Below, in pieces: positions 21,001-59,887 of a DNA stretch of 64,000 nt (its first letter is position 1; every line of letters starts with the position of its first letter). The notes beneath the pieces are model-generated. The model was not told the origin of the DNA, ran no database searches, and saw only the letters and a list, made by a program, of their open reading frames with translations. The position numbers and the translations under genes were made by a program. Source of the DNA: Balanoglossus misakiensis (taxonomy: Eukaryota > Animalia > Hemichordata); NCBI GenBank assembly GCA_040954595.2, contig CM082577.2:16809903-16873902 (forward strand), given 5' to 3'.

Positions 21001-23237
21001 TGTTAAGTTCCCATTTAGGGTGAAACGTTTACCACACATTTTGCATTCAAAAGGTTTTTCATTGGTATGGACTCTCAAGTGTGCTGTTAAGTTTCCATTT
21101 CGGGTGAAACGTTTACCACATATTTTGCACTCATATAGTCTTTCATTGGTATGGACTCTCAAGTGTGCTGTTAAGTTCCCATTTCGGGTGAAACGTTTAC
21201 CACATATTTTGCACTCATATAGTCTTTCATTGGTATGGACTCTCATGTGTGCTGTTAAGTTCCCATTTAGGGTGAAACGTTTACCACATATTTTGCACTC
21301 ATGTAGTCTTTCATTGGTATGGACTCTCATGTGTGCTGTTAAGTTCCCATTTCGGGTGAAACGTTTACCACATATTTTGCACTCATTTAGTCTTTCATTG
21401 GTATGGACTCTCATGTGTGCTGTTAAGTTCCCATTTAGGGTGAAACATTTACCACATATTTTGCACTCATATAGTCTTTCGTGGGTATGGACTCTCAAGT
21501 GTGCTGTTAAGTTCCCATTTCGGGTGAAACGTTTACCACATATTTTGCACTCATATATTCTTTCGTGGGTATGGACTATCCAGTGTGCTATTAAGTTCCC
21601 ATTTAGGGTGAAACGTTTACCACATATTTTGCACTCATATGGTCTTTCGTGGGTATGGACTCTCAAGTGTGCTGTTAAGTTCCCATTTCGGGTGAAACGT
21701 TTACCACATATTTTGCACTCATATAGTCTTTCATGGGTATGGACTCTCAAGTGTGCTTTTAAGTTCCCATTTAGGGTGAAACGTTTACCACATATTTTGC
21801 ACTCATATAGTCTTTCATTGGTATGGACTCTCATGTGTGCTGTTAAGTTCCCATTTAGGGTGAAACGTTTACCACATATTTTGCACTCATATAGTCTTTC
21901 ATTGGTATGGACTCTCAAGTGTGCTGTTAAGTTCCCATTTCCGGTGAAATGTTTACCACATATTTTGCACTCATATTGTCTTTCATGGGTATGGACTCTC
22001 AATTGTGCTGTTAAGTTCCCATTTAGGGTGAAACGTTTACCACATATTTTGCACTCATATAGTCTTTCGTGGGTATTGACTCTCAATTGTGCTGTTAAGT
22101 TCCCATTTAGGGTGAAACGTTTACCACATATTTTGCACTCATATAGTCTTTCATTGGTATGGACTCTCAAGTGTGCTGTTAAGTTCCCATTTCCGGTGAA
22201 ATGTTTACCACATATTTTGCACTCATATTGTCTTTCATGGGTATGGACTCTCAATTGTGCTGTTAAGTTCCCATTTAGGGTGAAACGTTTACCACATATT
22301 TTGCACTCATATAGTCTTTCGTGGGTATTGACTCTCAAGTGTGCTGTTAAGTTCCCATTTCCGGTGAAATGTTTACCACATATTTTGCACTCATATTGTC
22401 TTTCATGGGTATGGACTCTCAAGTGTGCTGTTAAGTTCCCATTTCCGGTGAATTGTTTACCACATATTTTGCACTCATATAGTCTTTCATGGGTATGGAC
22501 TCTCAAGTGTGCTGTTAAGTTCCCATTTCCGGTGAATTGTTTACCACATATTTTGCACTCATATTGTCTTTCATGGGTATGGACTCTCAAGTGTGCTGTT
22601 AAGTTCCCATTTAAGGTGAAATGTTTACCACATATTTTGCACTCATATAGTCTTTTGTGGGTATTGACTCTCAAGTGTGCTGTTAAGTTCCCATTTCCGT
22701 TGAAATGTTTACCACATATTTTGCACTCATGTAGTCTTTCATTGGTATGGACTCTCATGTGTGCTGTTAAGTTCCCATTTCGGGTGAAACGTTTAAGACA
22801 TATTTTGCACTCATATAGTCTTTCATTGGTATGGACTCTCATGTGTGCTGTTAAGTTCCCATTTCGGGTGAAATGTTTACCACATATTTTGCACTCATAT
22901 GGTCCTTCGTGGGTATGGACTCTCATGTGTGCTGTTAAGTTCCCATTTCGGGTGAAATGTTTACCACATATTTTGCACTCATATAGTCTTTCATTGGTAT
23001 GGACTCTCATGTGTGCTGTTAAGTTCCCATTTCGGGTGAAACGTTTACCACATATTTTGCACTCATGTAGTCTTTCGTGGGTATGGACTATCCAGTGTGC
23101 TATTAAGTTCCCATTTAGGGTGAAACATTTACCACATATTTTGCACTCATATAGTCTTTCGTGGGTATGGACTCTCAAGTGTGCTGTTAAGTTCCCATTT
23201 CGGGTGAAACGTTTACCACATATTTTGCACTCATATA
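1..23237 (-). repeat. 84-bp tandem array encoding C2H2 zinc fingers (about 276 units), downstream part; runs off the window start
   Basis: The unit translates on the minus strand as YECKICGKRFT(R/L/G)NGNLTAH(L/M)RVHT(H/N)ERL (C-x2-C-x12-H-x3-H, 28 aa). The longest uninterrupted ORF is 12530-20743 (2737 aa, about 98 fingers). Lesions: 1-bp deletions near 393 and 20777, TGA near 1276 and 2710, 6-bp stop-containing insertions near 1445, 2880, 3221 and 12529, and 11-bp deletions near 7414 and 8747. Confidence 0.97.
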
Positions 23238-24725
23238 CAGTCCCAACAGAATAGAACAACTATTTGTACATTTCTGAATACGGCAAGTAGTACGTCAACC
23301 CTACGGGAACTATTGTTAGTTGTAGCAGAGTTTGCTGCAACAATTGTCTAAGGCCCATTTCCTTTTGTTACATTTCCGTAAAAACTACGGCAACTCCTTT
23401 ACGGCAAGCCATTAACAAGGGAAGCTTAACACCTCTACCCGTAAATACTGCTGCAACACCTGTCAATTAGCCCCCACAGGGTGATGCCTTTTGTTCAAGG
23501 TGTTGATTATTTTGCTACAACTAGAGTGATTGACAGGTCTAGAACTAGAGTGCAACATTTTTGCAACAGGTCACTGCAACATTGTATCACAAAGTTTACA
23601 AAAGAAGCTCTGTCTAAAAATAAAATGGCAAAGGGCTGACATCAAATACCAATGAAGTCAGTTTTGGAATGATGTTATGATCATCGACAAAGTCTGAACT
23701 CTCTTGGTAACAGAACAGTCTGTGGACATGAACAGAGGTCAACACATCCCTACCCCAGTGTTGTATAATGCACATGTTTTGCTGGGGTTTCTTTTCTTTC
23801 AAGGAGCTGGACCAATTAATATTTGAGAGATACAGCATGACCAATGGAAAATCAAACACAATGACGCATTTCAAAATTGGGTTTAGCTTAAAAGACATTG
23901 GCTTTCATTTTTTTTGACCTGCTGCCCCCCCCCCCCCCCTTACATGAAGACCCTGATAATAAATAGTAGGCTTGTTTACAAAATAATGTTGGCCTGCAGT
24001 ACCACGATCCGCTGCAGTTTGATCTTTAGAACAGACAAGTTTTGAGAGTCTTGACTATAATTTTGAAGGGTTTCATAAGTAGTAATGGTCTGTATTATTT
24101 CAATATTCTATTATTACGGCAATGGATATACACTCATTTTCCGACGGGCAGTGCTTGAACATGATGGGAAGTGACTGGCAGCAATTAGTTGGCCGGTTTG
24201 GGATGAATGACCTACATGTTTACTCATTATATATTCACGCAATTTGTTTAGTCTAAGCAAGCCCCTGCACTTGGCAGAATTTGGAAACAATTTGCCTGTC
24301 AATCATTGCCTGGCTACCTCTTGCCCCCAAAGTCCGCGCCTGATAAAATACATTCAATGAGCGACCTTTATATCCAGACAGAGAGGGGGTGGCCGCAGTG
24401 AATGAATTGATGGTAAGTTTCAAATTCACATGTAAAATTTTAACATTTTCTGTTCAAATCCAGCCAGTTCAATGTATTGTTTAATCAACATTCCTGAAAT
24501 AAAAAAGTTGACAACAAAGTGATTACTACGAGCGGGCATGCATGACAGTATTGATCGCTGAACTTTCAACAAAATACACTGGTATAGTGGTTTAGTCCAA
24601 ATGCGTCTTTGTCAAGCTCTCGGGTGCGTGAATATTTATGAGAAACTTATTACTGCGAACGTACATTCACAATGTGAAACTAGTCCTATTATTTCAGAGC
24701 ACTTGCCAAATGGTCAAATCATGGT

Positions 24726-24956
24726 GGTAAAAGATGAGTGGCCGGCAAGACCGGGCCTAGACGTCCTCCACCTGTGTCAAACGGCTTTTGATGTGAATAA
24801 TACTTTGCATAAATTACGAGGTCAACATGTGTGGTAGTGCCGGTAGTATCCATCGATCGACCTGGTAAAAAGATGAGCGGCTAGACTTCCTGCTGCCGTG
24901 TCTAACGGCTTTTGACGTGAATAATAATTTGAATAAATTACGAGGTCAACATGTGG
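24726..24956 (+). repeat. Imperfect direct repeat of about 100 bp (2 copies)
   Basis: tggtaaaagatgag...aacggcttttga(t/c)gtgaataata...taaattacgaggtcaacatgtg occurs at about 24726-24835 and 24863-24956. Confidence 0.8.
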
Positions 24957-25310
24957 CCGATTTCATCATGTAAATAAAAAGCACATGGGTCCGAAAGTTT
25001 CAGGCACTCTGATATGCATAGTGGTGTCAGAGGTGTTTCCCACACCAAAACTTAGAAGACAGTCATTTCAATTACGGCCTCCTGCCAAACTCAACACATG
25101 CGCACAAAATGGAACTGCAACTTTATTCACAAATCTGCAGAATTCTAGTGCAAAAAACAGACAAACTCAAAATACACATCGCACCATGGTTCACTCTGAA
25201 TTATTTGGACTTTCACTGGGCCATGTCTCTGCTTGATAGCGTCAGGTTTGCAACACATTGTTGCCAAATTTACACATATTGACAAGGTAATCAAAACAAC
25301 AGGTGTTTTA

Positions 25311-26565
25311 CCACGAAATTCTTTTTACCAGCACCAAACGGCAAACTGGCAACATCGTATTTCTTTCATGCCAGCAACGCGTTATCTCTAAAATTGTAAC
25401 AACGTCACAATGTACTAGACAAAGAGGCGTCCCCCCATCCCAATTGCGCAGTTGAAGTACGTGCGTGTTGAGAGAGAGAGACGTGAACAGAAAGGGGTTG
25501 GAGACTGACTTGAACACGGACGACGAGAGTTGTTTAGCGTGTCGAACGCTGCTCTACGAAGCTCGTAGTTACCTACTGACAGGGACATTTGCGCTGGAAC
25601 GGACTGGGTTCCTCCAGATTGCCGCACGCCGGCGGGTATGAAAGTGTAGGCTAAGACGTCGATCCACCGGCCGGCTGCACTGTTCCCAACATTACCAGCT
25701 CCACGCCACTTTGAGCTGCACCGCGGTCGGATATCCCACCCCGGCTGCCGGACAGCATATGAAGGTGTCTGAGGCCTTTTCTAGTCAAAACTTTGGGGTT
25801 TTCGGAATGGGAAATAGCGGAACAAGAACATGGATATATACTAAATCATGAACGCCAAACAAACACGTTGAAAAAGCCAGATCTGAAAAATTCATGTGGC
25901 GTCCGCCGCTGGGCGCATTGACGCGTCAACGTTTTTTTCAAACAACGTAACCTGTCACGATTGCTGCCACAAACAACAAGTTCATGCGTACGTCGAGAAA
26001 GTTCTCAAGCGGCCGGGTGATCGCGGCAAGGTTAGCGGCAGCCTCGGACGCCCGAATTTGCCACAAAACTATCAGTCCACACAGCAATGCCGTTCAAACT
26101 CTTCCGTCGTATTTATTTCAACACAAATTCAGAATACAACACGACAGTTTGGTACGTCGTCTCTATCCTACACTGCTAATTCTCATCTCAATCTCTAAAA
26201 AAGTTCAACAGACGGGATACACTGCAACCCGCGGCACTAGGAACGGCAAAATTCACGTCTCTGCTTCACAGGAATCTACCGACCTGAAGTGGGAGGAACC
26301 CAGTCCGTTCAAGTACAAATGTCCCGGTAAGAAGGTAACTACGAGCTTCCTAGAGCAGCGTTCGAATCGACACGTCTCTCTCAACACGCACGTACTTCAA
26401 CTGCGCAATAGGGATGGGGGGGGCGCCTATTTGTCTACTAAATTGTGACGTTGTTACAATTTTAGAGATAACGTGTCGGGCCCCCTCAAAGAAAGCCGGT
26501 GGCCCCCTCAAAGAAAGCCGGTGTTGCTAGTTTGGCATTTGTTGCTAGTATTCTGAATGTTGTAG
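25311..26565. mobile_element. MITE/foldback-like element with long (about 230-260 bp) imperfect inverted repeats, flanked by TA
   Basis: 25311-25575 is the reverse complement of about 26333-26565 (gttatctctaaaattgtaacaacgtcacaat vs attgtgacgttgttacaattttagagataac; gttgaagtacgtgcgtgttgagagaga vs tctctcaacacgcacgtacttcaac). TA is at 25309-25310 and 26566-26567. The right arm has a 22-bp tandem duplication at 26479-26522. No coding capacity is evident. Confidence 0.8.
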
Positions 26566-27932
26566 TATTACTCAGGGTATCACTAATGCCAGGGAGGTCC
26601 GTCTGCGTCTATTTGGTCACCAGCATGGCACACGTCCTGTAATTATAATTGCTGTTTTGAGTGCGTCTTTACCTAATTTGAATATCCTGATCAGGTTGTT
26701 GGCCTTGCCCTAGTTGTCTCAAAATGTACATTGATACAAACAATTGCAACATATTAGTCAATACCCTGCCAACTTACGCCAAGTGTACATGTTGTTATGG
26801 AAGTTTATTTTTAGAACCGCTTGCGTTCTGCATAGGTCACAACACAAAACTTTGAAGCCCGTCAGCTAGCCCTGCATAGCGTATGTAAAGCTACTGAGAC
26901 AGGGGAAATATTAGTAAGGTTGACAACTGACTTGCTCGCTATCAAGATTTAGAAGGAATTTATTTGCTTAGTGAGGCCAGGACATTAATTGCCCCCACCC
27001 AAGCAAAATCCACGTGGGTGGAGCTCATTATCACACATAGACATTGCTACAACTATTGTTCACATCAGGGTGATAATCACCTCCCCATTAGCCCTTCTTG
27101 CCGTAACACCTGCCCCAAATTGCTGTAATGGAGCACACATTCTTTTGTTTCAAACTACGGGAACCTTTGTAGTTGCCGTAAACCATGGAGGTACTAGAGA
27201 GAAGGAGCGAGGACGGATTTAAGCGGATTAAATCCCTTTCTTCTGAAGTGTGATAAGCTTCTTAAGTCTTTGTGTTTCTGTGTCGATAGCGTCCTTTGAA
27301 CCCACTGTGTGTTGCCGTCGATTTTACAGTTAGGTTTGCAAGATCTACGGGGTAATATTTCTATGATATTAAAAACGTTATGCGCACATCGCGGACGAGG
27401 GTACTACATATGCGCGGTGACTTTTAAAACATCCAGGGGTCACAGTTTGCGCGTCACCACTACCGGAAGCGTGTCAAGCGGACGTCTGTGAAGGTTTGTA
27501 GCGTTATTTCTCTTGTTTGTACAACCAAAAAGTATGATTTTGAAATGAATATTTTGGGTTTTCCTCAAATTTCCGCAAAAAACAACAAATTCATAGGTTT
27601 TATTTGAAAACCAATCTTCCCGATGCAAGCTATTTTGTTAGTGTGGGATGGTGTGGGATGCCCGATATTCACCATTGTAATTGCCAGTGTAGAGACGTTC
27701 GGCACAGCATTTTGGTCAGGTTTGTCGTGAAAATCATCTCTCAAGGCTGTCCATATAGCATACCACTATGTTTTGGGGGTTTAATTTTTTTTATATGAGA
27801 TAACATGTAGTAACTTCTAGAAAAGGCGAGATTTCATGTTCAGGTCTTTGTTCGTGAACATGTTACGTAAACTGTTCTGGTTGGTACCCATTGTTGTGTA
27901 TTGTCCACAGGCATTGTTACCTCCCGATCCCG

Positions 27933-27958
27933 CATGGAGGTACTAGAGAGACCTCCAT
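27933..27958. other. Internal partial TIR copy forming a small hairpin upstream of the transposase
   Basis: CATGGAGGTACTAGAGAGA (first 19 bp of the TIR) runs directly into ACCTCCAT, the reverse complement of ATGGAGGT. Confidence 0.85.
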
Positions 27959-28149
27959 CGTCTGACTTCAAGGGTTATTATTATTGTTAGCTTCTAATCA
28001 AAGAGCAATCGAAGCATAGTTATTTTTAATATAATAGAATAAACAAGATATGACAAAATTGCTATGTGACAGGAGAACAGTTTCGTATTGTATCGTATGA
28101 AATATGGAGTTTAATTAAGAGAGTATGGTTATTTTTTCCTCCACAGAAA

Positions 28150-31100
28150 ATGGAACATCACAAAGCAAACCTTGAGTGTTTGTGTAGATTGTGTGGTGCC
28201 GAAAAAGCCATACGACGTAACAACCTTCCTATAAAGAAAGAAGCGCATTCCATCACAATAAAGAGGGCATTGTCTATAGATGTCCTTGATGAAAATGGGG
28301 AAATATTCCCACCTTTTATATGTATGCCGTGTTCGTTAAAATTAAACCGGTGGAAAGAGAAGGTGCGTCGGAATAAATCTAAGGATTATCCAATTAACAT
28401 CAACCCTACCCCATTTGTGGAGCACACAAGCAGTTGTAGTTTGTGTACAAGTGACGGAAGTGACCAAGAACCAACACTCATATCTGTGATTGCTGACAAG
28501 GCAGACGAATATGGTTACATCAAGGTTGTTGGTGAACAGTCAAACAGTATTTGCTGTTTGAAGATTTGTAATCACACCAAGAAGATCTCCATCAGCATTG
28601 AAGTGCAAGAATCCGGGGTATGGACTGTGGGAGTGTTTGGAAGAGCAGCAAATGCCTCCCCAGTGTTTACTGGCATTCCTACAAGAATTGATGCGGAGTC
28701 CTGCTGTCATCTCTTCAAATTGTTGGAAACAACAGTCCCGTGCCCCGGAAACGTTGGCTTCAACGAGTTATGTCGGCTGAGATCACCCCACCAAAACTGT
28801 GTACTTTTTAACAAAGACAAAGATGTAATTGCAAATGAAGAAGATGGGCCATGCTGCAAGACAATAAGACACATTAAATGTGAACTTTTGTCTCCAGACA
28901 GTACATCACGGTGTACTGTTTGCTCTGTGTATCGCAACAATTTGAATGCATTAACAAAGAGGGAAATCAAAAAGAAATCGTCAGCTGGTCCTTCGGACAA
29001 GTACTCCTGCATCAGAAATGATGCATTGAGCCGGTCCACACTTGAACAGAAGACGAGAGACCTCCAAGGAGAGAAGCGAGCTTTGAAGAGAAGAGTACGT
29101 GATTTGAAAAGTCGCTTACGTAATGTGATCGAAGAAAAGGGTGAGGTTCTGAATGATGATCTCACGAAATCATTTTCAGCGATCATGGAAGAAAAGAATG
29201 AAGAGATTCTTTCAACATATCCACCAGGGAGCCCACACCATTTATTTTGGCAGCAGCAAAGGGAAGCCTTGTCGAGATCGAGTTGTCAAAGAAGATGGCA
29301 CCCTTTAATGGTTAAATGGTGTATTGCGCTGCATTCCAAATCACCAGCAGCATATCGATTTCTTCGAAAGACCAAAACTCTAGCCCTGCCATGTGAGACT
29401 ACTCTGACTATACCCGCATCACTTCATCCACTGAAGGAGTGATCACAGAAATCATCGAGAATATCGTGGACACAGCCGATAATATACCTGAATACCAAAG
29501 AAACGTGTCCCTGGTGTTTGATGAGATCAGGATAAAGAGTGGACTTGTGTACAAGAAGGACACAGGAAATCTTCTTGGTTTCTGTAAACTTGGAAATATC
29601 AATGACGAGATCATGAAGTTTGTTGAGAAGTTAAAGGAGGCTGGTGAGGATGATGACATGTATCAAGGTGATGATGGTGGCCCATTGGCCACTCATGTTC
29701 TAACCTTTATGGTTAGAGGTTTGTGTTCCCCACTTCATGAAGTTTTTGCCTGGTTTCCCTGTTGTGGCTTCAACAGCCAACAACTGTACTGGGCAGTGTG
29801 GGATGCCGTTGCAGTGCTGGAATGGGCCAATTTTAAGGTCAGGGCATTTGTCTCCGATGGAGCCTCACCAAACAGGAAGTTTTACAGACTTCACGAGAAT
29901 GGTGATGGTATAATTACACACTGCACTGAAAATCCGTACGACAAATCTCGTCTGATCTATTTCATATGTGATGTGCCACATTTGATCAAAACGACACGAA
30001 ACAACTGGGAAAATTCGGGATGGCACAACAGAACAAGACATCTTGAAGTAAGTATTCTTTAAAACATGGATAATTATTGCTTGTGTCAAATAATTTGGAT
30101 GTGAGGGAGATTAGTATTTATTCATGCGAATGATATAAATGAGCATCATTACAATATTAAAATTTAATGATGAGGAGTCGTTATCTATTGTGAATCAAAT
30201 ACGTCGGAGCGGTCACTGTATAGCGTGTGTATGATTTACATTAAAACTGACAAAGTTCACTGTGTCAACTTTACTTTTCAATTTCACTATCATTTTTTCA
30301 CTCAATGTGGTGGACTCACTGCATATGTGTTGTGTGTCTTTCATCAACAATTGTACATGTACTAATTATCTTTTTTTATTGTCAGTACCAAGGACAACAA
30401 ATCACCTGGGTCCAACTTGCCAACCTGGTTGAAGACGAAATTGGAAGTGGTACCACTGCACCCCTTCGAAAATTACCCCGTATTACCTATGAACACGTCC
30501 ATTTGACACCTTCACTCAGGATGCGGGTGAAGCTTGCAGCTCAGGTAATTTTGTCACATATATTCTATGAAAGACAGCATAAATTACCTATAAAAGCATT
30601 TCTGGTACATATTTTTCTACTCTCACAACAAAGCCTTCAGAGAAGTCTTCAACTTTCATCGTGTAGAAGTAAACAAATAATGTATGTGTTAATTGTAGAT
30701 GGGTCAGAATAGCAGTGATATTTACAATGTACATGTAGGCTATTGTTAAAAAAAGGTATGAATCATATAGCCTATTTTATTTTTAAATTGTTTTATTTCA
30801 TATTGGGGAAAAATTACAGGTCTTGAGTAGCAGCGTGGCAAAAGCACTGGAATCAAATGGCCGACAAGATACTAAATCAACAGAGAAGTTTATTTCAATG
30901 ATAGACCAGTTTTTTGATTGTCTAAATGTATCAAGATTAGGCCAGGGTCAGCGGTCCAGGAAACCTTGTTTGGAACCATACCGTGATGTCGAAGACTGGC
31001 GCTTTGAGGTGAGTTTAACCTTTCTACAACCATGGCTGGTCCCAAATCCATTGTTTTCATGGTAAAGTTGGACTTCCACACAGGGAACAGGGGCGAAATT

Positions 31101-32090
31101 GATAAAATGCTTTTGCAGATATAATTACGTGTTGTTCAAGTTAATCTGTAATCTCATTAATATTTATGGTTTCAGCATTTTCATTTGTATGTTGAAATTA
31201 ATATTATTAAAGTTTAACAATCTCAAAAATGTGCAAGTATCTTTAGCCAATCTAACAAATTTAACTTGGGCAAAAAGATAACTAAACTATTTGATTACCC
31301 ATTGCAATTTTTTTTCAAGGGTTTATATTTATTTTCTGTTAGATATTATTTTGGTCTCAACCTTCATTTCTCATTTATAGTGTTACAATCATAATAAGTA
31401 TTCAATATTGATTTGCAGTGGCTGGAGAAAGAATTTTTAGGATTCCTGAATGAGTGGGAAGAAGAGTGCATGGCGAGGGTAAACATCTCTCCAGTTGAAA
31501 GACGTAAGATGTGCCTTAGCAGAGAGACTCTAGAAGGCTACAGAATAACAGGTCTGTTTCTTTTTTTACTATTACTATATGGTTATTCACAAGACATGGC
31601 CAATACTTCTCGTACAATCCCATTGCATGCACTAACATATGGACAATTATACTGCATTTATCAAATCTTAAAGCTGCTTTCCCTTTTATTTAGTAAAAAA
31701 GATTAGCCTCAGTCAAGAGCATTTTGCATAAATGACAGTTTGACTTATCAAACTCCAGTTGTTGCCAATGAAGTGAATAACAAGTCTTGCTTCCTTTTTT
31801 CAGTGAAGTCTTTCGTGGCTCTGGGCAAGGAGTTGCTGACTATTGATGGTGTCAACTACCTATTGAGCGAAAAGCTGTCACAAGACCCCCTTGAGGAATA
31901 TTTCGGTCGGCAGCGTGGTTGTGTTGGCCGAAACGACAACCCAACATTTGCAGAGTTTACAAGAAATGCACTTTCCTTGCATGTTGCCGGCACGTATTCC
32001 TCAGCGATGAATTCCCGTGGTAATTGCCAGAATCTAAATAGGGACGATGGAGCTCCATGGACACACATGTTACATCACCGGCAGCGCTAA
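28150..32090 (+). pseudogene. P-element/THAP9-type DDE transposase (about 890 aa, 5 coding exons) with RAG1-N-like zinc domain; one frameshift
   Basis: Exons 28150-30047, 30386-30544, 30820-31008, 31419-31551 and 31804-32090 are joined by GT-AG introns that keep frame. P motifs: RWHPLMVKWC..LHSKSPAAY..LR...LALP, LVFDEIRIKSGLVY (D1), VSDGASPN (D2), FICDVPHLIKTTRNN, MRVKLAAQVLS, DQFFDCLN, LSQDPLEEYFGRQR..GRNDNPT (E), RGNC. There is a frameshift near 29405 in the expected TL(R)DYT motif. Confidence 0.92.
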
Positions 32091-32223
32091 CATGATTTAC
32101 TGTATAACCCAGTGCTTGTCAGGTTAAGGTTTTAGCTTTTTACAAAATGCACTTTCTGTTCAAACAGCTTATTCCTGCAAGTGTCCCAGAGATGTCAATC
32201 ACATGAATCTTGACACAATTTTT

Positions 32224-32781
32224 AGGTCGCATTTGGTTTATATATATATACCGGGTATAAACCATGGGACATTATGGGATCGGTTGCGTCTGTATGGATG
32301 GACGGATGTATGTCTGTATGTCTGTCCACATCACAAAGTTGAAAACCACTGTGTATATCACCTTGATATTTGGTGTACAGATGCAGGCTGGGCTGTAGAT
32401 GGGAGTTTGTTCAAATGAAGTTGTCATTGCCAAAATATGCAAATTAGCTGGAAAAATATGAATTTGGTCAAAACTCAGTAACTCAAGAAGTACCGGTCAG
32501 ATTGCTTTGCAAAGTGGTGTGCATTTACTTTGTGTTCTTTTAATTAGGGAGGAACCCCCACCATACACAGCAAATTCCTGCATGAGTACATAACTGGCTA
32601 AGTTTTAAAGAGACAAGCTGTTCTATTTAGTGTATGCAGCTTATGGGTCAGTCAGTGTTTGCCCATTGATCTCTCTCTCTATGTGTGTGTGTGCATTTGT
32701 CTGTATGTTTTCTGTATATGTACTCCGGTGAAGACTTTTTCTTGTGTAATCCCTCAATGGGACCACTGTGTCCTTGAGGCG
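32224..32781 (+). mobile_element. Non-autonomous Helentron/HINE (DINE-1-like) element, copy 1, between the two convergent genes
   Basis: Starts in a T-run with AGGTC(G/C)CATT, followed by a short inverted ATGGGAC and a GTAT/GTCT microsatellite. It ends with the subterminal inverted AATGGGACC, a short tail and a T-run. It is highly similar to 58631-59210 and to the start of 60274. Confidence 0.7.
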
Positions 32782-33587
32782 TTTTTAATGTTTAACATTG
32801 GCTTCCATGAAAGATGGTAGCAATGAAGCATTTTGAGAGTATGTAAAACCTGTAAATGCAAAAACTTATTAATCTGAGTGTATAATTTTAAGTAACAAGC
32901 CAAGATCACATTAGTATTCTTGATGCACATTTTCTTGGACATTGTTTTTATTAAGATTTTTCAATTTACAATTTCAGTTCATTGCAAATGCTTTTGAGGC
33001 AATTATCTGAAACGTCTCAGGTCTCGCAATATTTTTTTATATATATATTGTGTCATTTACACTTTTGTAACAAACTGAGCTATTTACTGTACCATTTTTG
33101 AGACAATTATTCTTGCCAACCTGTCCAGTGAGTCTTGCCAAGGTGTGTTGTCTTTATTTATATTTGTTCACACTGTCCAGAAGGACAGTATATGAAACAG
33201 TTTGAATTGATGAACAAATCCATACTTAATCCGCACCTTCAACAGTTAAAAGAGAAATTGCACCAATAAGTGTATGACACAAACAAGTCACGACTTCATG
33301 GTGTATAATTTATAATACATGTTGTTTATTTCTGAACATTTCCAAACTGTCAAGCTGCCACAAACAGAATAAGCATGGTACATATGCATAAAGGTGGACT
33401 GAAAGAAAAGGTAACTGCACTGATTCCCAGTTAAAGTACTTGTAAATTAGCAAAACATTAAATTCTTATGCAGGGGAACTTGAACAGACATCTCAGTACA
33501 GAACTTTATTGTGAAATTTTTACTGAAAATGATAAGATTTACACAAAGTCAACTTTCCATGGACACAGCTTTTACTGCTCATTACCT

Positions 33588-35302
33588 TTATTTACAAAGT
33601 TTCTTCCTCAAACTTTTCTCTCCTTTTTGTGACATATTTTTATCTTTTTTCTTGCGTAAGTACATCAATATGTTCACAAAGGAACGGCAACGTATCTCTA
33701 CATACATTTCAAGTACCCTTAGGTACAGGGAACCACCTAAATCATGGTCAAGATCTTGCGATATAATATGCCAACCACTTACTACAGAGGGCGACTTCTG
33801 AAGTGCCTCTAAAATTGCCAACTTAAGGTTGCTGTCTCGGTAAGCTCCAACATTCTTTACTGAAAGAAAACTCCTTGTAACCATCTCTACTCTCCTCAGA
33901 AAAAGATAGAAATCATCACTTACGAGAAACAATCCTCCCCTGTTTACTGCATCAACCCACTTTTTGGTGTACGTCAAAAATGAATACCGTAGGTCACTCT
34001 GTTGTGGATTTAATTCCCATTTACTCAGGAAAGCTAAACAAGCTGCTGCAGATGTATTGCTGGGGAATCTGCTGTAAAAACGTTTCAATTTGTGAGGAAT
34101 AAACCCTGCTACATAGCGCAACACCTGTTCCTCGCCTTTAGTTAGCTGTACATCATCCTGTTTGTTCACATTGGTACAGTCGACGCCATTACATTTTCCC
34201 TGAACCAATAGTTTTACAAACTCACTCACTACAAACTGGACAATGAAGGACAATACTCTACTTGAGACATTCATATTTGTACATGTGAGAAAATCAGCAA
34301 AGTAATTGTCAATAGTATTGTTCAATCTCAGACGATGGAATAAACTGCAGACACCTTCGAGAGACCTTGATGAAATATCTTCTATTGAAACACATGGCCA
34401 AACTTCCCTGATGACTTTGCATGACAATTCCTCCACACTGGGACATGGTGACTGCAGGAGACTAAACACTGGTTCCATTTCGGCTCCAAGTTGTCTGTTC
34501 AGTCGTAGCTTCCCACTTCTTTTAATGTTGTCAACAGCAACCGACATTAGCTGGAGGCTACACTGCAGCGCCATATCAATGGTATATGATGATGTACATG
34601 TTACTGTAAATAATAGAGACATACAAAGACATGTGGAGTTAGATACATATTTTAAAGTCAAAATGTATGCTAAAAAGTAAAAACCAGCTCTTCTTACCTC
34701 CATGCCAACAAAAACATATGCAATGTAATTTTCTGGCAAATTTGACAAGTAAAAAATATGTATTTTGGGGATTGCTGTATCCATGGAGATATGTTTGTAA
34801 TTTTCAAAACAAATAAAATGACTGAATTATCAACACATACCTTTTATCTTCTGCACATTTCTTTTTTTCTCCGGGGCATTCCTAGAATTCCTTGGTGCAT
34901 CATTTATACTACTGAATTCCTTACCTGTGGACAAAAAAAAAAAAAAATTGCACATAAACGCTTAACAATAAGTATTTGAAATAAAATGACCATCATAATC
35001 AAAGGATCGACGAACTAACACCAACCACACTAAAGGACACCGGAAAATGTAGTTTGAAACTCACCTAAACATTTAGGGCAGTACCACTTGCCTTCCGGAA
35101 TACTCTCACTTGAGACGCCAACACAAACATAGTGGTACCATTCCATGCTACAACTGCTATTGTCGCATGCGATCATCTCGTCAGTTTCTGGCCCTTCGCA
35201 GACACAAAAGGTTTGCGTAGATAATAATACAGAATGCTCTTCGATCGACGCTAAGTTTTCAGACTGATCGAAATCTCCAAGATTTTCAATGTGTGGATCC
35301 AT
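33588..35302 (-). CDS. Second gene of the P element: N-terminal ING-type PHD finger plus P-transposase C-terminal-domain-like region (445 aa, 3 exons, intact)
   Basis: Exons 35302-35065, 34924-34841 and 34603-33588 have phase-1 GT-AG introns (TTAG|gtgagt, ccacag|G, AAAG|gtatgt, ttacag|T) and total 1338 bp with no stop. The PHD is FCVCEGPETDEMIACDNSSCSMEWYHYVCVGV...GKWYCPKC. The C-terminal half has EEQVLRYVAGFI..KL, W.DAVNRGGLFLVSDDFY.F...E and YVEIR. Confidence 0.85.
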
Positions 35303-35662
35303 GTTTTCGCAAAGGATTTGTAATCATGGAGACGCGACGCCAGCTATAATTTGTATATCTACGCATGCGCTCAGCTTGTACGATTGTTCCCGAAGTACAC
35401 CGAATTCTCCCGAACGCCTATCAGTAGATAAGAGGATTAGGGCCGTAATGTTTATCTGCAAACAGATAAAAACGCACATGGGGTTCGAAGGAAACAATAG
35501 CGTCCTCGCTCCTTCTCTCTAGTACCTCCATGCGTAAACTAAGACAAAAAACATCAATTAACCAACAAAAGAGGTGTTGCCGTAACATCTCTGCTACAAC
35601 ACTGCTACAACTAGTGCGGGAACTTTCCCGTACAGTTTAGTTGTTGTACGGTGTTGGGACTG

Positions 35663-38600
35663 TAGTCTTTCGTGGGTATGGACTATCCAGTGTGCTGTTA
35701 AGTTCCCATTTCCGGTGAAACGTTTACCACACATTTTGCACTCATATAGTCTTTCATTGGTATGGACTCTCAAATGTGCTTTTAAGTTCCCATTTCGGGT
35801 GAAACGTTTACCACATATTTTGCACTCATGTAGTCTTTTTGTGGTATGGACTCTCATGTGTGCTGTTAAGTTCCCATTTCGGGTGAAACGTTTAAGACAT
35901 ATTTTGCACTCATATAGTCTTTCGTGGGTATGGACTCTCAAGTGTGCTGTTAAGTTCCCATTTCGGGTGAAACATTTACCACATATTTTGCACTCATATA
36001 GTCTTTCATTGGTATGGACTCTCATGTGTGCTGTTAAGTTCCCATTTAGGGTGAAACGTTTACCACATATTTTGCACTCATATGATCTTTCGTGGGTATG
36101 GACTCTCAAGTGTACTGTTAAGTTCCCATTTAGGGTGAAACGTTTACCACACATTTTGCATTCAAAAGGTTTTTCATTGGTATGGACTCTCAAGTGTGCT
36201 GTTAAGTTTCCATTTCGGGTGAAACGTTTACCACATATTTTGCACTCATATAGTCTTTCATTGGTATGGACTCTCAAGTGTGCTGTTAAGTTCCCATTTC
36301 GGGTGAAACGTTTACCACATATTTTGCACTCATATAGTCTTTCATTGGTATGGACTCTCATGTGTGCTGTTAAGTTCCCATTTAGGGTGAAACGTTTACC
36401 ACATATTTTGCACTCATGTAGTCTTTCATTGGTATGGACTCTCATGTGTGCTGTTAAGTTCCCATTTCGGGTGAAACGTTTACCACATATTTTGCACTCA
36501 TATAGTCTTTCATTGGTATGGACTCTCATGTGTGCTGTTAAGTTCCCATTTAGGGTGAAACATTTACCACATATTTTGCACTCATATAGTCTTTCGTGGG
36601 TATGGACTCTCAAGTGTGCTGTTAAGTTCCCATTTCGGGTGAAACGTTTACCACATATTTTGCACTCATATATTCTTTCGTGGGTATGGACTATCCAGTG
36701 TGCTATTAAGTTCCCATTTAGGGTGAAACGTTTACCACATATTTTGCACTCATATGGTCTTTCGTGGGTATGGACTCTCAAGTGTGCTGTTAAGTTCCCA
36801 TTTCGGTTGAAACGTTTACCACATATTTTGCACTCATATAGTCTTTCATGGGTATGGACTCTCAAGTGTGCTTTTAAGTTCCCATTTAGGGTGAAACGTT
36901 TACCACATATTTTGCACTCATATAGTCTTTCATTGGTATGGACTCTCATGTGTGCTGTTAAGTTCCCATTTAGGGTGAAACGTTTACCACATATTTTGCA
37001 CTCATATAGTCTTTCATTGGTATGGACTCTCAAGTGTGCTGTTAAGTTCCCATTTCCGGTGAAATGTTTACCACATATTTTGCACTCATATTGTCTTTCA
37101 TGGGTATGGACTCTCAATTGTGCTGTTAAGTTCCCATTTAGGGTGAAACGTTTACCACATATTTTGCACTCATATAGTCTTTCGTGGGTATTGACTCTCA
37201 ATTGTGCTGTTAAGTTCCCATTTAGGGTGAAACGTTTACCACATATTTTGCACTCATATAGTCTTTCATTGGTATGGACTCTCAAGTGTGCTGTTAAGTT
37301 CCCATTTCCGGTGAAATGTTTACCACATATTTTGCACTCATATTGTCTTTCATGGGTATGGACTCTCAATTGTGCTGTTAAGTTCCCATTTAGGGTGAAA
37401 CGTTTACCACATATTTTGCACTCATATAGTCTTTCGTGGGTATTGACTCTCAAGTGTGCTGTTAAGTTCCCATTTCCGGTGAAATGTTTACCACATATTT
37501 TGCACTCATATTGTCTTTCATGGGTATGGACTCTCAAGTGTGCTGTTAAGTTCCCATTTCCGGTGAATTGTTTACCACATATTTTGCACTCATATAGTCT
37601 TTCATGGGTATGGACTCTCAAGTGTGCTGTTAAGTTCCCATTTCCGGTGAATTGTTTACCACATATTTTGCACTCATATAGTCTTTCATGGGTATGGACT
37701 CTCAAGTGTGCTGTTAAGTTCCCATTTCCGGTGAATTGTTTACCACATATTTTGCACTCATATTGTCTTTCATGGGTATGGACTCTCAATTGTGCTGTTA
37801 AGTTCCCATTTAGGGTGAAACGTTTACCACATATTTTGCACTCATATTGTCTTTCATGGGTATGGACTCTCAAGTGTGCTGTTAAGTTCCCATTTAGGGT
37901 GAAATGTTTACCACATATTTTGCACTCATATAGTCTTTTGTGGGTATTGACTCTCAAGTGTGCTGTTAAGTTCCCATTTCCGTTGAAATGTTTACCACAT
38001 ATTTTGCACTCATGTAGTCTTTCATTGGTATGGACTCTCATGTGTGCTGTTAAGTTCCCATTTCGGGTGAAACGTTTAAGACATATTTTGCACTCATATA
38101 GTCTTTCATTGGTATGGACTCTCATGTGTGCTGTTAAGTTCCCATTTCGGGTGAAATGTTTACCACATATTTTGCACTCATATAGTCTTTCGTGGGTATG
38201 GACTATCAAGTGTGCTGTTAAGTTCCCATTTAGGGTGAAACGTTTACCACATATTTTGCACTCATATGGTCCTTCGTGGGTATGGACTCTCATGTGTGCT
38301 GTTAAGTTCCCATTTCGGGTGAAATGTTTACCACATATTTTGCACTCATATGGTCCTTCGTGGGTATGGACTCTCATGTGTGCTGTTAAGTTCCCATTTC
38401 GGGTGAAATGTTTACCACATATTTTGCACTCATATAGTCTTTCATTGGTATGGACTCTCATGTGTGCTGTTAAGTTCCCATTTCGGGTGAAACGTTTACC
38501 ACATATTTTGCACTCATGTAGTCTTTCGTGGGTATGGACTATCCAGTGTGCTCTTAAGTTCCCATTTAGGGTGAAACATTTACCACATATTTTGCACTCA

Positions 38601-41600
38601 TATAGTCTTTCGTGGGTATGGACTCTCAAGTGTGCTGTTAAGTTCCCATTTCGGGTGAAACGTTTACCACATATTTTGCACTCATATAGTCTTTCGTGGG
38701 TATGGACTATCCAGTGTGCTATTAAGTTCCCATTTAGGGTGAAACGTTTACCACATATTTTGCACTCATATGGTCTTTCGTGGGTATGGACTCTCAAGTG
38801 TGCTGTTAAGTTCCCATTTCGGGTGAAACGTTTACCACATATTTTGCACTCATATAGTCTTTCATGGGTATGGACTCTCAAGTGTGCTTTTAAGTTCCCA
38901 TTCTCGCCAAAACATTTACCACATATTTTGCACTCATATGATCTTTCGTGGGTATGGACTCTCAAGTGTGCTGTTAAGTTCCCATTTAGGGTGAAACGTT
39001 TACCACACATTTTGCACTCATATAGTCTTTCATTGGTATGGACTCTCAAATGTGCTTTTAAGTTCCCATTTCGGGTGAAACGTTTACCACATATTTTGCA
39101 CTCATATAGTCTTTCATTGGTATGGACTCTCAAATGTGCTTTTAAGTTCCCATTTCGGGTGAAACGTTTACCACATATTTTGCACTCATATAGTCTTTCA
39201 TTGGTATGGACTCTCATGTGTGCTGTTAAGTTCCCATTTTGGGTGAAACGTTTACCACATATTTTGCACTCATGTAGTCTTTCATTGGTATGTACTCTCA
39301 TGTGTGCTGTTAAGTTCCCATTTAGGGTGAAACGTTTACCACATATTTTGCACTCATATAGTCTTTCATTGGTATGGACTCTCATGTGTGCTGTTAAGTT
39401 CCCATTTAGGGTGAAACGTTTACCACATATTTTGTACTCATATAGTCTTTCGGGGGTATGGACTCTCAAGTGTGCTGTTAAGTTCCTATTTCGGGTGAAA
39501 CATTTACCACATATTTTGCACTCATATAGTCTTTCATTGGTATGGACTCTCAAGTGTGCTGTTAAGTTCCCATTTCGGGTGAAACGTTTACCACATATTT
39601 TGCACTCATATAGTCTTTCATTGGTATGGACTCTCATGTGTGCTGTTAAGTTCCCATTTAGGGTGAAACGTTTACCACATATTTTGCACTCATGTAGTCT
39701 TTCATTGGTATGGACTCTCATGTGTGCTGTTAAGTTCCCATTTCGGGTGAAACGTTTACCACATATTTTGCACTCATATAGTCTTTCATTGGTATGGACT
39801 CTCATGTGTGCTGTTAAGTTCCCATTTAGGGTGAAACATTTACCACATATTTTGCACTCATATAGTCTTTCGTGGGTATGGACTCTCAAGTGTGCTGTTA
39901 AGTTCCCATTTCGGGTGAAACGTTTACCACATATTTTGCACTCATATATTCTTTCGTGGGTATGGACTATCCAGTGTGCTATTAAGTTCCCATTTAGGGT
40001 GAAACGTTTACCACATATTTTGCACTCATATGGTCTTTCGTGGGTATGGACTCTCAAGTGTGCTGTTAAGTTCCCATTTCGGGTGAAACGTTTACCACAT
40101 ATTTTGCACTCATATAGTCTTTCATGGGTATGGACTCTCAAGTGTGCTTTTAAGTTCCCATTAAGGGTGAAACATTTACCACATATTTTTCACTTATATA
40201 GTCTTTCGTGGGTATGGACTCTCATGTGTGCTGTTAAGTTCCCATTTCGGGTGAAATGTTTACCACATATTTTGCACTCATATAGTCTTTCATTGGTATG
40301 GACTCTCAAGTGTGCTTTTAAGTTCCCATTTCGGGTGAAACGTTTACCCCATATTTTGCACTCATATGGTCCTTCGTGGGTATGGACTATCCAGTGTGCT
40401 GTTAAGTTCCCATTTCCGGTGAAACGTTTACCGCATATTTTGCACTCATATGGTCCTTCGTGGGTATGGACTATCAAGTGTGCTGTTAAGTTCCCATTTC
40501 AGGTGAAACGTTTACCGCATATTTTGCACTCATATGGTCCTTCGTGGGTATGGACTATCCAGTGTGCTGTTAAGTTCCCATTTCCGGTGAAACGTTTACC
40601 GCATATTTTGCACTCATATGGTCCTTCGTGGGTATGGACTATCAAGTGTGCTGTTAAGTTCCCATTTCGGGTGAAACGTTTACCGCATATTTTGCACTCA
40701 TATGGTCCTTCGTGGGTATAGACTATCAAGTGTGCTGTTAAGTTCCCATTTCGGGTGAAACGTTTACCGCATATTTTGCACTCATATGGTCCTTCGTGGG
40801 TATGGACTATCCAGTGTGCTGTTAAGTTCCCATTTCCGGTGAAGCGTTTACCACATATTTTGCACTCATATAGTCTTTCATTGGTATGGACTCTCATGTG
40901 TGCTGTTAAGTTCCCATTTCGGGTAAAACGTTTACCACATATTTTGCACTCATATAGTCTTTCATTGGTATGGACTCTCATGTGTGCTGTTAAGTTCCCA
41001 TTTCGGGTGAAATGTTTACCACATATTTTGCACTCATGTAGTCTTTCATTGGTATGGACTCTCATGTGTGCTGTTAAGTTCCCATTTCGGGTGAAACGTT
41101 TACCACATATTTTGCACTCATATAGTCTTTCGTGGGTATGGACTATCAAGTGTGCTGTTAAGTTCCCATTTCGGGTGAAACGTTTACCACATATTTTGCA
41201 CTCATATAGTCTTTCATTGGTATGGACTCTCAAGTGTGCTGTTAAGTTCCCATTTCGGGTGAAACGTTTACCACATATTTTGCACTCATATAGTCTTTCA
41301 TTGGTATGGACTCTCATGTGTGCTGTTAAGTTCCCATTTAGGGTGAAACGTTTACCACATATTTTGCACTCATATAGTCTTTCGTGGGTATGGACTCTCA
41401 AGTGTGCTGTTAAGTTCCCATTTCCGGTGAAACGTTTACCGCATATTTTGCACTCATATGGTCCTTCGTGGGTATGGACTATCAAGTGTGCTGTTAAGTT
41501 CCCATTTCCGGTGAAACGTTTACCGCATATTTTGCACTCATATGGTCCTTCGTGGGTATGGACTATCCAGTGTGCTGTTAAGTTCCCATTTCCGGTGAAA

Positions 41601-43598
41601 CGTTTACCGCATATTTTGCACTCATATGGTCCTTCGTGGGTATGGACTATCCAGTGTGCTGTTAAGTTCCCATTTCGGGTGAAACGTTTACCGCATATTT
41701 TGCACTCATATGGTCCTTCGTGGGTATAGACTATCAAGTGTGCTGTTAAGTTCCCATTTCGGGTGAAACGTTTACCGCATATTTTGCACTCATATGGTCC
41801 TTCGTGGGTATGGACTATCCAGTGTGCTGTTAAGTTCCCATTTCGGGTGAAGCGTTTACCACATATTTTGCACTCATATAGTCTTTCATTGGTATGGACT
41901 CTCATGTGTGCTGTTAAGTTCCCATTTCGGGTAAAACGTTTACCACATATTTTGCACTCATATAGTCTTTCATTGGTATGGACTCTCATGTGTGCTGTTA
42001 AGTTCCCATTTAGGGTGAAATGTTTACCACATATTTTGCACTCATGTAGTCTTTCATTGGTATGGACTCTCATGTGTGCTGTTAAGTTCCCATTTCGGGT
42101 GAAACGTTTACCACATATTTTGCACTCATATAGTCTTTCGTGGGTATGGACTATCAAGTGTGCTGTTAAGTTCCCATTTAGGGTGAAACGTTTACCACAT
42201 ATTTTGCACTCATATAGTCTTTCATTGGTATGGACTCTCAAGTGTGCTTTTAAGTTCCCATTTCGGGTGAAACGTTTACCACATATTTTGCACTCATATA
42301 GTCTTTCATTGGTATGGACTCTCATGTGTGCTGTTAAGTTCCCATTTAGGGTGAAACGTTTACCACATATTTTGCACTCATATAGTCTTTCGTGGGTATG
42401 GACTCTCAAGTGTGCTGTTAAGTTCCCATTTCCGGTGAAACGTTTACCGCATATTTTGCACTCATATGGTCCTTCGTGGGTATGGACTCTCAAGTGTGCT
42501 GTTAAGTTCCCATTTCCGGTGAAACGTTTACCGCATATTTTGCACTCATATGGTCCTTCGTGGGTATGGACTATCAAGTGTGCTGTTAAGTTCCCATTTC
42601 CGGTGAAACGTTTACCGCATATTTTGCACTCATATGGTCCTTCGTGGGTATGGACTATCCAGTGTGCTGTTAAGTTCCCATTTCCGGTGAAACGTTTACC
42701 GCATATTTTGCACTCATATGGTCCTTCGTGGGTATGGACTATCCAGTGTGCTGTTAAGTTCCCATTTCGGGTGAAACGTTTACCGCATATTTTGCACTCA
42801 TATGGTCCTTCGTGGGTATAGACTATCAAGTGTGCTGTTAAGTTCCCATTTCGGGTGAAACGTTTACCGCATATTTTGCACTCATATGGTCCTTCGTGGG
42901 TATGGACTATCCAGTGTGCTGTTAAGTTCCCATTTCGGGTGAAGCGTTTACCACATATTTTGCACTCATATAGTCTTTCATTGGTATGGACTCTCATGTG
43001 TGCTGTTAAGTTCCCATTTCGGGTAAAACGTTTACCACATATTTTGCACTCATATAGTCTTTCATTGGTATGGACTCTCATGTGTGCTGTTAAGTTCCCA
43101 TTTAGGGTGAAATGTTTACCACATATTTTGCACTCATGTAGTCTTTCATTGGTATGGACTCTCATGTGTGCTGTTAAGTTCCCATTTCGGGTGAAACGTT
43201 TACCACATATTTTGCACTCATATAGTCTTTCGTGGGTATGGACTATCAAGTGTGCTGTTAAGTTCCCATTTAGGGTGAAACGTTTACCACATATTTTGCA
43301 CTCATATAGTCTTTCATTGGTATGGACTCTCAAGTGTGCTTTTAAGTTCCCATTTCGGGTGAAACGTTTACCACATATTTTGCACTCATATAGTCTTTCA
43401 TTGGTATGGACTCTCATGTGTGCTGTTAAGTTCCCATTTAGGGTGAAACGTTTACCACATATTTTGCACTCATATAGTCTTTCGTGGGTATGGACTCTCA
43501 AGTGTGCTGTTAAGTTCCCATTTCCGGTGAAACGTTTACCGCATATTTTGCACTCATATGGTCCTTCGTGGGTATGGACTATCAAGTGTGCTGTTAAG
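35663..43598 (-). repeat. 84-bp C2H2 zinc-finger tandem array, upstream part (about 94 units)
   Basis: Same unit as 1-23237, resuming exactly in register after the TA duplication. Stops at about 40190 and 40500. An EGPY-linker variant is enriched in 40350-43598. The array ends abruptly at a poly-C run. Confidence 0.97.
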
Positions 43599-44116
43599 CC
43601 CCCCCCCCCCCCCCCCCCCGGAAATCCTCCACCCCTGGAAGTATTTTCTAAGCAATCCCTAGCAGACAGTGGCCTAAATACACGACACATCTTTTGCATA
43701 TGCATCACTACAATGTTGAATGAAACAAGTCATTGCAAAATCAATCAGATACAAATTGCTTCTCGGTAATGAAGATACATCGTGTACAGACCTCGCCGAC
43801 TTAGCCTGTTTTTTTTTCTTATATTTACCGTAAAGAAAGGTTTTGGTGTGATAGTCATGACAGACACTACTTGTTAGCGCTATGTCTGAATTCGCCTCAT
43901 CGACGGTAGAAACACCACTTTCCGCTTGCACGTGCTCGCTCGACTACAGTCTCGTATTTTCCGGAGAGTATGGTTGACCTTGCAACATGGCGGGCGAAGA
44001 TGTAGCAAAACTATTGGCATTTCTCTGGATACGTGTACTCTGGGCACCGTACTCCTCACGGGATCTGATTCACTCAGATCAGTACACGTCCTCTGGTGTT
44101 AATGCCACATCAGTTT
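43599..44116 (+). repeat. About 520-bp dispersed direct repeat, copy 1 (starts with poly-C)
   Basis: Near-identical to 46095-46627 (gacagtggcctaaatacacg ... caacatggcgggcgaagatgta ... tgccacatcagttt). Confidence 0.9.
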
Positions 44117-58616: not shown

Positions 58617-58630
58617 GAAATGTCCTTTTT

Positions 58631-59210
58631 AGGTCCCATTTTTATAGGTATATATACCATGGGACCTTATGGGATCGGTTGCGTCTGTATGTATGTATGG
58701 ATGGATGTATGGATGTCTGTATGTCCGTCCACATCAAAAACTTGAAAACTGCTGCGTGTATCACCTTGATATTTGGTGTGCAGATGGAGGCTGGGCTGTA
58801 GATGGGAGTTTGTTCAAATGAAGGTGCCATTGCCAAAAATATGCAAATTAGCTGGAAAAATGTGAATTTGGTCAAAACTCAGTAACTCAAGAACTACTGG
58901 TCAGATTGCTTTGCAAAGTGGTGTGTATTTACTTTATTGAGTTGTTTTAATTAGGCAGGACGTTCCCTGGTGTGATTGATTTACACAGGAAATTCCTGAA
59001 TTACATAACTGGCTAAGTTTTAAATAGGCCAGCTGTTCTATTTAGTGTATGTACAGTACATATGCCATTGGCAGCTTATGGGTCAGTCAGTGCTTGCCCA
59101 TTGATCTCTCGCTATGTGTGTGTGTCTGTCTGTCTGTATATGGCCATGTACTCCGGTGTAGACTTTTTCTTGTGTAATAACTCAATGGGACCCCTGTGTC
59201 CTTGACGTGA
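58631..59210 (+). mobile_element. Non-autonomous Helentron/HINE-like element, copy 2
   Basis: tttttAGGTCCCATT...ATGGGACCT, GTAT/GGAT microsatellite, 3' AATGGGACC, tail and T-run. Collinear with 32224-32781. Confidence 0.72.
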
Positions 59211-59887
59211 TTTTTTCATTACTTTTTTGAACCAAATTCTGTTGTTTTGTTCCTATTATTCCCTGCAAAAATTTAACTTTTGGCCTCATTCCATGTGTAA
59301 TGAATTCTCCTGATCCATTTTACGGGTAGTCTCTGAAACCTTTTGCGTTCTTTATTTAATACTTCATAGATCCATTGCCTTGTCATCACATCATGACCAG
59401 GGGGTAGGTTTGTGTTACTAAGGACTCAGCTTTTGAAGGTCGAGCAATATTTTTCTATTTGAGACAGAAATATTGTGGTATTTACACACAAAATAATTTT
59501 TGTACCGTGTAAAAAAATTATATTTATATTAGACACACTTTATAACAGAGTTTAAAATTGATATGTATTATTTATTTGTTCAAATAAATATATTATCTGT
59601 GTTTACAAAGATTGAGTTGTTTTGTATTTGTAGCACACCAAAAATATACTACATCTTCCATTGACACTTGGTAATCACTATACAGTGCTCTTTGCATACA
59701 CACACTACCGGTACATACACTAGGTTTGTTGAGAGGCAGAATTTGAGCTTGGGGACCCTGTGCTGCTACATAAAAACAAAAATTGAAAAAAACAAGTGTT
59801 TATTTGTGGTACGAGCCTTTGTTATGAAACCCATCAGTTTGAACAAATTTTCGGCACTGTATGAAATTTGGACTACATGTAGTTTGT

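Follow-up and report, generated by a model that had tools for sequence, protein, structure and literature searches.

The window analysed here, a 64,000-nucleotide stretch of the Balanoglossus misakiensis genome in whose coordinates all positions are given, carries a P-superfamily transposon whose transposase appears to be divided between two genes. In the present copy, gene 1 is frameshifted and encodes the catalytic core, and the facing gene 2 encodes a C-terminal domain (CTD) protein that is likely to be a required second subunit; we assign this reading a probability of about 0.7. The element occupies 27184-35532 (~8.3 kb), contains both genes, and is bounded by perfect 32-nt terminal inverted repeats (TIRs) starting with CATGG and by the 7-bp target-site duplication (TSD) CGTAAAC. 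Gene 1 on the plus strand and gene 2 on the minus strand are convergent, and each of the six introns in their models is of the GT-AG type (Table 1). The window is animal DNA and contains spliced genes and long C2H2 zinc-finger arrays.

Members of the P superfamily have TIRs beginning with CA, TSDs of 7-8 bp, a helix-turn-helix (HTH) and an RNase H-type DDE domain split by a GTP-binding insertion, and they move by GTP-dependent cut-and-paste transposition with 17-nt staggered ends. The ends of the present element (32-nt TIR, 7-bp TSD), its HTH and its split DDE core with the GTP-binding insertion agree with this description, while two traits of the canonical single-chain P/THAP9 transposases, the N-terminal THAP domain and the CTD within the catalytic polypeptide, are absent from it.

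Table 1 Features of the two-gene P element (positions in the window)
Feature	Position	Strand	Remark
Left TSD, CGTAAAC, 7 bp	27177-27183	.	Identical to 35533-35539
Left TIR, 32 nt, starts CATGG	27184-27215	+	100% complementary to right TIR
Internal copy of TIR nt 1-19, exact	27933-27951	+	
Gene 1, P-type transposase without CTD, five exons	28150-32090	+	
Gene 1 exons	28150-30047, 30386-30544, 30820-31008, 31419-31551, 31804-32090	+	
N-terminal Cys/His finger resembling zf-AD / RAG1 N-terminal region	28150-28360	+	Pfam, sub-cut-off
First predicted catalytic Asp (FDE)	29520-29522	+	Alignment to Drosophila transposase; role predicted from homology
Second predicted catalytic Asp (SDGA)	29856-29858	+	Role predicted from homology
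Predicted catalytic Glu (QDPLE)	31893-31895	+	PF21789; role predicted from homology
RGNC motif, 20-codon tail, TAA stop	32016-32090	+	
Unrelated repeat nested in the gene 1/gene 2 spacer	32219-32786	.	
Gene 2 residues 256-445 and stop, P-transposase CTD homologue (very likely) with basic C-terminal helix	33588-34160	-	
Gene 2 residues ~109-255, conserved all-helical domain, no family assigned	34161-34603	-	
Gene 2 exon 2, basic linker	34841-34924	-	
Gene 2 exon 1: ATG, short acidic stretch, ING-type PHD finger	35065-35302	-	
Right TIR, 32 nt	35501-35532	-	
Right TSD, CGTAAAC	35533-35539	.	

Several other features were noted in and around the element. The repeat nested in the spacer is non-coding, has T-rich flanks and a GTAT/GGAT-type microsatellite, and recurs with 80% identity at 58626-59214 and 60286-60587; we take it to resemble Helentron-associated elements. 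The internal copy of the TIR forms a short hairpin (ATGGAGG...CCTCCAT, 27933-27959), and an internal TIR copy also lies between the two genes of a related element (L006, 11509-11534). Very long minus-strand C2H2 zinc-finger arrays with 84-bp units occupy 1-23240 and 35594-43729 and contain open frames of 1531 and 1076 aa; the insertion site of the P element lies 62 bp beyond the stop of one such array. A MITE-like element of ~1.1 kb with imperfect terminal inverted repeats of ~240 bp (25377-26476) lies 700 bp upstream of the P element, and a short open frame on the minus strand (55850-56167) resembles, by eye, a retrotransposon integrase core. A search of 23000-36000 gave no Rfam match.

Gene 1 carries a P-type core. 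The N-terminal part of the RNase H domain (PF21787, E 7e-19), the GTP-binding insertion (PF21788, E 1.4e-6) and the C-terminal part of the RNase H domain (PF21789, E 9.8e-7) were all matched over the cut-off, and the HTH fell just under it (PF12017, E 1.1e-4, 22.9 bits vs a cut-off of 23). A relative of gene 1 from a sea star (P0051) matched 6p5a_A with E 2.2e-15. The N-terminal finger gave matches under the cut-off to zf-AD (E 0.022) and RAG1_imp_bd (E 0.1), with RAG1_imp_bd matches down to E 1e-8 among the relatives, and no THAP match was obtained with Pfam in gene 1 or in any of its ten complete relatives. The reading frame shifts between the HTH and the RNase H regions (near 29400-29410), at a place where it is continuous in four intact relatives; the present copy is thus defective, unless the shift is an assembly error, and consequently gives no evidence of activity.

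The last exon of gene 1 (31804-32090) encodes ...SQDPLEEYF...RGNC; after this motif come exactly 20 codons and then a TAA at 32088-32090, which agrees with the preliminary description, where the stop had been placed about 20 codons after RGNC. This short tail is a clade trait. All ten complete relatives, from amphioxus, echinoderms, a hydrozoan and others (14 of the 70 matches were read at their ends, and four of these were incomplete), stop 33-68 residues after PF21789, and in 10/10 elements read the stop follows the QD in the catalytic motif by 69-82 residues. P0051 aligns up to residue 559 of the Drosophila transposase and ends 36 residues later, and a CTD profile matched none of the 70 relatives (best E 0.18). 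Within the window, a six-frame search of its whole length with two gene-2 profiles, together with tblastn using all fetched proteins, located CTD-like sequence on the minus strand only (33591-34826) and none on the strand of gene 1; for a splice of gene 1 to another CTD-encoding exon, which the earlier reading had named as a finding that would count against it, the window thus contains no exon on that strand. A further 3' exon of gene 1 in the 1.5-kb spacer was considered and rejected, since the nested repeat is found there, with no CTD match.

Gene 2 consists of three exons and 445 codons and encodes, in order, a PHD finger, a linker, a helical domain and a CTD-like domain. The motifs of its C-terminal part start with EEQVLRYVAGFI at residue 265, WVDAVNRGGLFLVSD at residue 323 and YVEIR at residue 408; Y271, G274, W323, R329, G330, L332, E347, W385 and R412 each show 96-100% conservation across the 145 rows of a family alignment, so the motifs are not due to chance. 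The proposal that this part is a P CTD was borne out by structure and by profile. An AlphaFold2 model of the stretch (pLDDT 83.7, pTM 0.82) was aligned by VIA-align to 6p5a_B over 118/118 residues, i.e., the whole resolved CTD of the Drosophila P transposase (residues 617-734), with an rmsd of 2.2 A, 25% identity and Z 12.1, a value to be read with the caution that for helical folds a Z under ~13 may reflect a common arrangement; the second-best Z was 5.6 among the 1000 chains ranked highest by Foldseek. In the Foldseek search with the same model, 6p5a_B ranked first (probability 0.90, TM 0.63 by target, E 0.57), and all other listed rows had probabilities of at most 0.18; with a two-domain model of gene 2 it ranked 28th by E-value, yet with a probability of 0.87.

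Additionally, a sequence profile of the last 190 residues (A2, built from 11 sequences) ranked 6p5a_B first of 177,635 PDB sequences (E 0.0068) and aligned, in order, YVAG to YIAGY and NRGGL to SHGGL of Drosophila. Where the preliminary description had given RGGL for single-chain P/THAP9 transposases, the Drosophila CTD, which has YIAGY, reads HGGL..PS. Tnp_P_element_C (PF12596) is the family matched by most gene 2 members, 13 of 145 at E<=0.05, over the YVAG stretch (best E 0.0019, none over the curated cut-off of 22.6 bits). No sequence-only match of the domain is individually strong: the gene 2 protein of the window had no PF12596 match by itself, a single-sequence search with exon 3 found no match in Pfam or PDB, the longer profiles A1 and A3, which include the N-terminal helical domain, missed 6p5a_B, and the ESM Atlas offered no usable match for the window domain. 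Because sequence and structure agree on the one domain that gene 1 lacks, homology of the gene 2 C-terminal domain to the P transposase CTD is very likely.

A captured passenger gene, with a likeness to the P CTD produced by a coincidence of helical folds, would be compatible with the weak E-values of every sequence comparison and with the all-helical nature of the domain. This explanation is already largely refuted, and we regard it as highly improbable: the independent sequence and structure searches rank the same PDB chain first, the structural match covers the whole domain at 2.2 A, and the position and orientation of gene 2 within the element are constant.

Ahead of the CTD homologue, the helical domain (~150 aa, 34161-34603) is confidently modelled as all-helical and had no sequence match in Pfam or PDB. 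The PHD finger of exon 1 was recognised by PF00628 (E 7.9e-8); its sequence is nearest to the PHDs of ING1-5/Yng (top PDB matches, best E 8e-17), and by alignment it has F/M/W at the positions of the ING aromatic cage. The CTD had been described as a fusion to a PHD, which is correct for the present copy but does not extend to the family. Among 27 relatives of gene 2 of at least 400 aa, 11 have a PHD, six a C2H2 finger and 10 neither (isoforms included, pattern-based calls), and the three kinds are scattered over the family tree. In 8/8 fetched loci read at the 5' end, gene 2 starts within a few hundred bases of the TIR, which leaves hardly any space, or none, for a finger. The constant unit of gene 2 is the helical domain plus the CTD, and the PHD is optional. 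Relatives of gene 2 are stand-alone proteins as far as the best 150 of 3925 clusters (E<=0.001) are concerned, all of 133-535 aa, although some share of the 3925 may be single-chain relatives; no fused gene 2/transposase form was seen among the proteins of 840-2395 aa, which is weak evidence.

The two-gene layout is a clade feature. Six loci were fetched by transposase alignment alone, all on intron-bearing contigs, probably of host-animal DNA, within prokaryote-labelled bins; five of them have a short-tailed transposase facing a full CTD gene, with CAT-ended TIRs and exact 7-bp TSDs in 5/5, and the sixth has decayed to a fragment, in which a piece of the CTD is still convergent. Ten further regions were chosen by gene 2 matches, seven with a convergent gene-1 remnant (TIRs with exact 7-bp TSDs in three) and three with gene-2 fragments only (TIRs with such TSDs in one), and exact 7-bp TSDs were found in nine related elements overall. 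Among the elements examined, a complete gene-1 3' end is always accompanied by gene 2, in 5/5 and in 6/6 cases, the latter being gene-2-selected. Six regions chosen by transposase fragments (L056-L061) are without the 3' half and say nothing on linkage, and three metagenome loci are not long enough to cover gene 2. No loci were obtained when metagenome and viral contigs were scanned with gene 2, or viral contigs with gene 1. In Acanthaster, a gene-1-like and a gene-2-like gene (LOC110988468 and LOC110988470) have neighbouring accession numbers and contigs of equal size. Over 10 pairs, the identity of gene 1 is correlated with that of gene 2 (Spearman 0.76, p 1.5e-4 by permutation; L009, with its core in pieces, is omitted, and 4/10 pairs are joined only by equal contig size); correlated divergence is expected from linkage alone, so co-inheritance is shown by this result, not contact.

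Some of these loci deserve separate mention. The intron-containing, eukaryote-like P-element contigs L004-L009 and L050-L065 come from bins labelled bacteria or archaea and are likely host contamination. The two-gene element of L005 (7511-13003) is nested in a second, CATAG-ended element (7018-13903), which is likewise flanked by an exact 7-bp TSD. In L050, a CTD fragment follows the transposase tail on the same strand; a fused gene was considered and rejected, as the copy has decayed and been rearranged and contains pieces of gene 2 in either orientation. Two-gene P elements that have undergone internal deletion but retain intact TIRs and a 7-bp TSD were seen in L051 (8330-11444), L052 (6862-10125) and L062 (6588-8385); the first two kept gene 2, open in L051 and with a stop in L052, and lost most of gene 1.

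Trans-splicing of exons from opposite strands is known in insects. Joining of both transcripts into a single-chain transposase was considered here because a donor-like GT in phase 1 lies in the RGNC codons (32020) and exon 3 of gene 2 has a compatible phase-1 acceptor. We nevertheless find this route very improbable. The donor-like GT at the Gly codon is present in only 2/10 elements, the rest having GGC, GGG or another residue, and in relatives the residues after RGNC form a conserved, basic (PLPKR-like) tail, as would be expected of translated sequence. Moreover, a separate ATG of gene 2 lies close to the TIR in 8/8 loci read, the gene seemingly consists of one exon in L007 and L050, where no acceptor would be available, and the NCBI models are separate proteins.

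With gene 2 as a separate CTD protein, a two-chain transposase is plausibly feasible, given the attachment of the P CTD within the complex. [quoted passage not shown] According to PMC7776569, the CTD of Drosophila touches both transposon and target DNA at many points, including those of a target-contacting helix; the last ~33 residues of gene 2 are net basic in 140/140 scored members of the family alignment (median +8), as expected for such a helix. The extra helical domain might, as a guess, offer a surface for docking or dimer formation in place of the covalent linker, and the PHD or C2H2 finger could be an exchangeable accessory that biases the complex to particular chromatin or DNA. The present copy would move only with transposase supplied in trans.

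Alternatively, gene 2 could be a regulator or stimulator: the core would cut, and might also integrate, without a CTD, while the free CTD protein would tune or repress it, or act at target capture only. We consider this unlikely, though the exchangeable chromatin- or DNA-reading modules at the gene 2 N-terminus speak for it, as do the extra domain that is not in the resolved Drosophila CTD and the retention of gene 2 in the deletion derivatives L051 and L052, which also fits ordinary internal deletion. On the other hand, elements that share 15-30% identity still have the full CTD fold and its basic helix, the corresponding Drosophila domain contacts both DNAs extensively, and gene 2 accompanies every complete gene-1 3' end examined. 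A role of gene 2 as a subunit is therefore favoured over that of a regulator. The division into two genes may have come about by fission of a fused ancestor, as the 'moved' of the earlier reading implies, or by a change the other way. A wider proposal, that a widespread THAP-less P clade uses an obligate two-subunit transposase, with target capture by the free CTD, steering by the ING-type PHD to H3K4-methylated chromatin and an independent arrival at the RAG1/RAG2 design, is put forward tentatively, as a possibility well short of even odds.

P transposases have been described as single six-domain chains. To our knowledge, the role assigned to their CTD rests mainly on one cryo-EM structure, and a natural clade with a separate CTD protein would make excision and integration testable with and without this domain. 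The swap of N-terminal modules may provide a built-in handle for controlling or retargeting a transposase. Moreover, a probable function can be suggested for many 'uncharacterized' proteins of marine invertebrates, which form a large family (3925 clusters at E<=0.001, of which some may be single-chain relatives).

In the abstracts and accessible texts searched, no P element was described as split or as having two genes; a two-ORF P consensus may be catalogued in Repbase Reports, Dfam, subscription journals or supplements. Two candidate prior names were set aside: 'Pangu' is a PHIS group, and 'N-RAG-TP' is described, in the accessible part of its source, only as RAG1-N-like sequence. Kolobok is a two-gene DNA transposon, and the transposition machinery of PIF/Harbinger is likewise distributed over two genes; the second proteins of both belong to unrelated accessory families, whereas here the second protein is a domain of the transposase chain of other superfamily members.

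The Drosophila melanogaster P element (87-kDa transposase, PDB 6P5A/6PE2), vertebrate THAP9 and zebrafish Pdre2 share with the present element the CAT-ended TIRs of ~30 nt, the HTH, the split RNase H DDE domain with its GTP-binding insertion and a CTD that is all-helical and has the same fold. Here, in contrast, the CTD is encoded by a separate convergent gene with its own ATG and is preceded by an additional helical domain and, in some members, by a PHD or C2H2 finger, and a zf-AD/RAG1-N-like finger replaces THAP; the TSD is 7 bp, not 8 bp. In the accessible text of the respective papers, zebrafish THAP9 is modelled with a fused CTD (PMC10983969) and the C-terminal domain of human THAP9 is placed at 681-865 (PMC10824691). 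The 7-bp TSD and a P-type transposase are common to 1360/Hoppel and Galileo, which are described as intronless in PMC3698922, where the accessible text does not mention a second gene, unlike the two spliced genes found here.

In organisation, the element parallels RAGL/ProtoRAG (RAG1L + RAG2L), in which, according to the accessible text of PMC7204232, two convergent genes also lie within TIRs, with a RAG1-N-like finger on the large catalytic gene and a PHD on the small partner. The core here is P-type, not Transib/RAG1; the partner carries a helical P CTD, as in the all-helical model of exon 3, and not a kelch propeller; the PHD is N-terminal and ING-like; and the TSD is 7 bp and not the 5 bp given in the accessible text of PMC8355894. 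RAGL/ProtoRAG is thus a parallel in layout, not in membership, and the element described here would represent, beside RAG1L/RAG2L, a second case of convergent two-gene transposon organisation.
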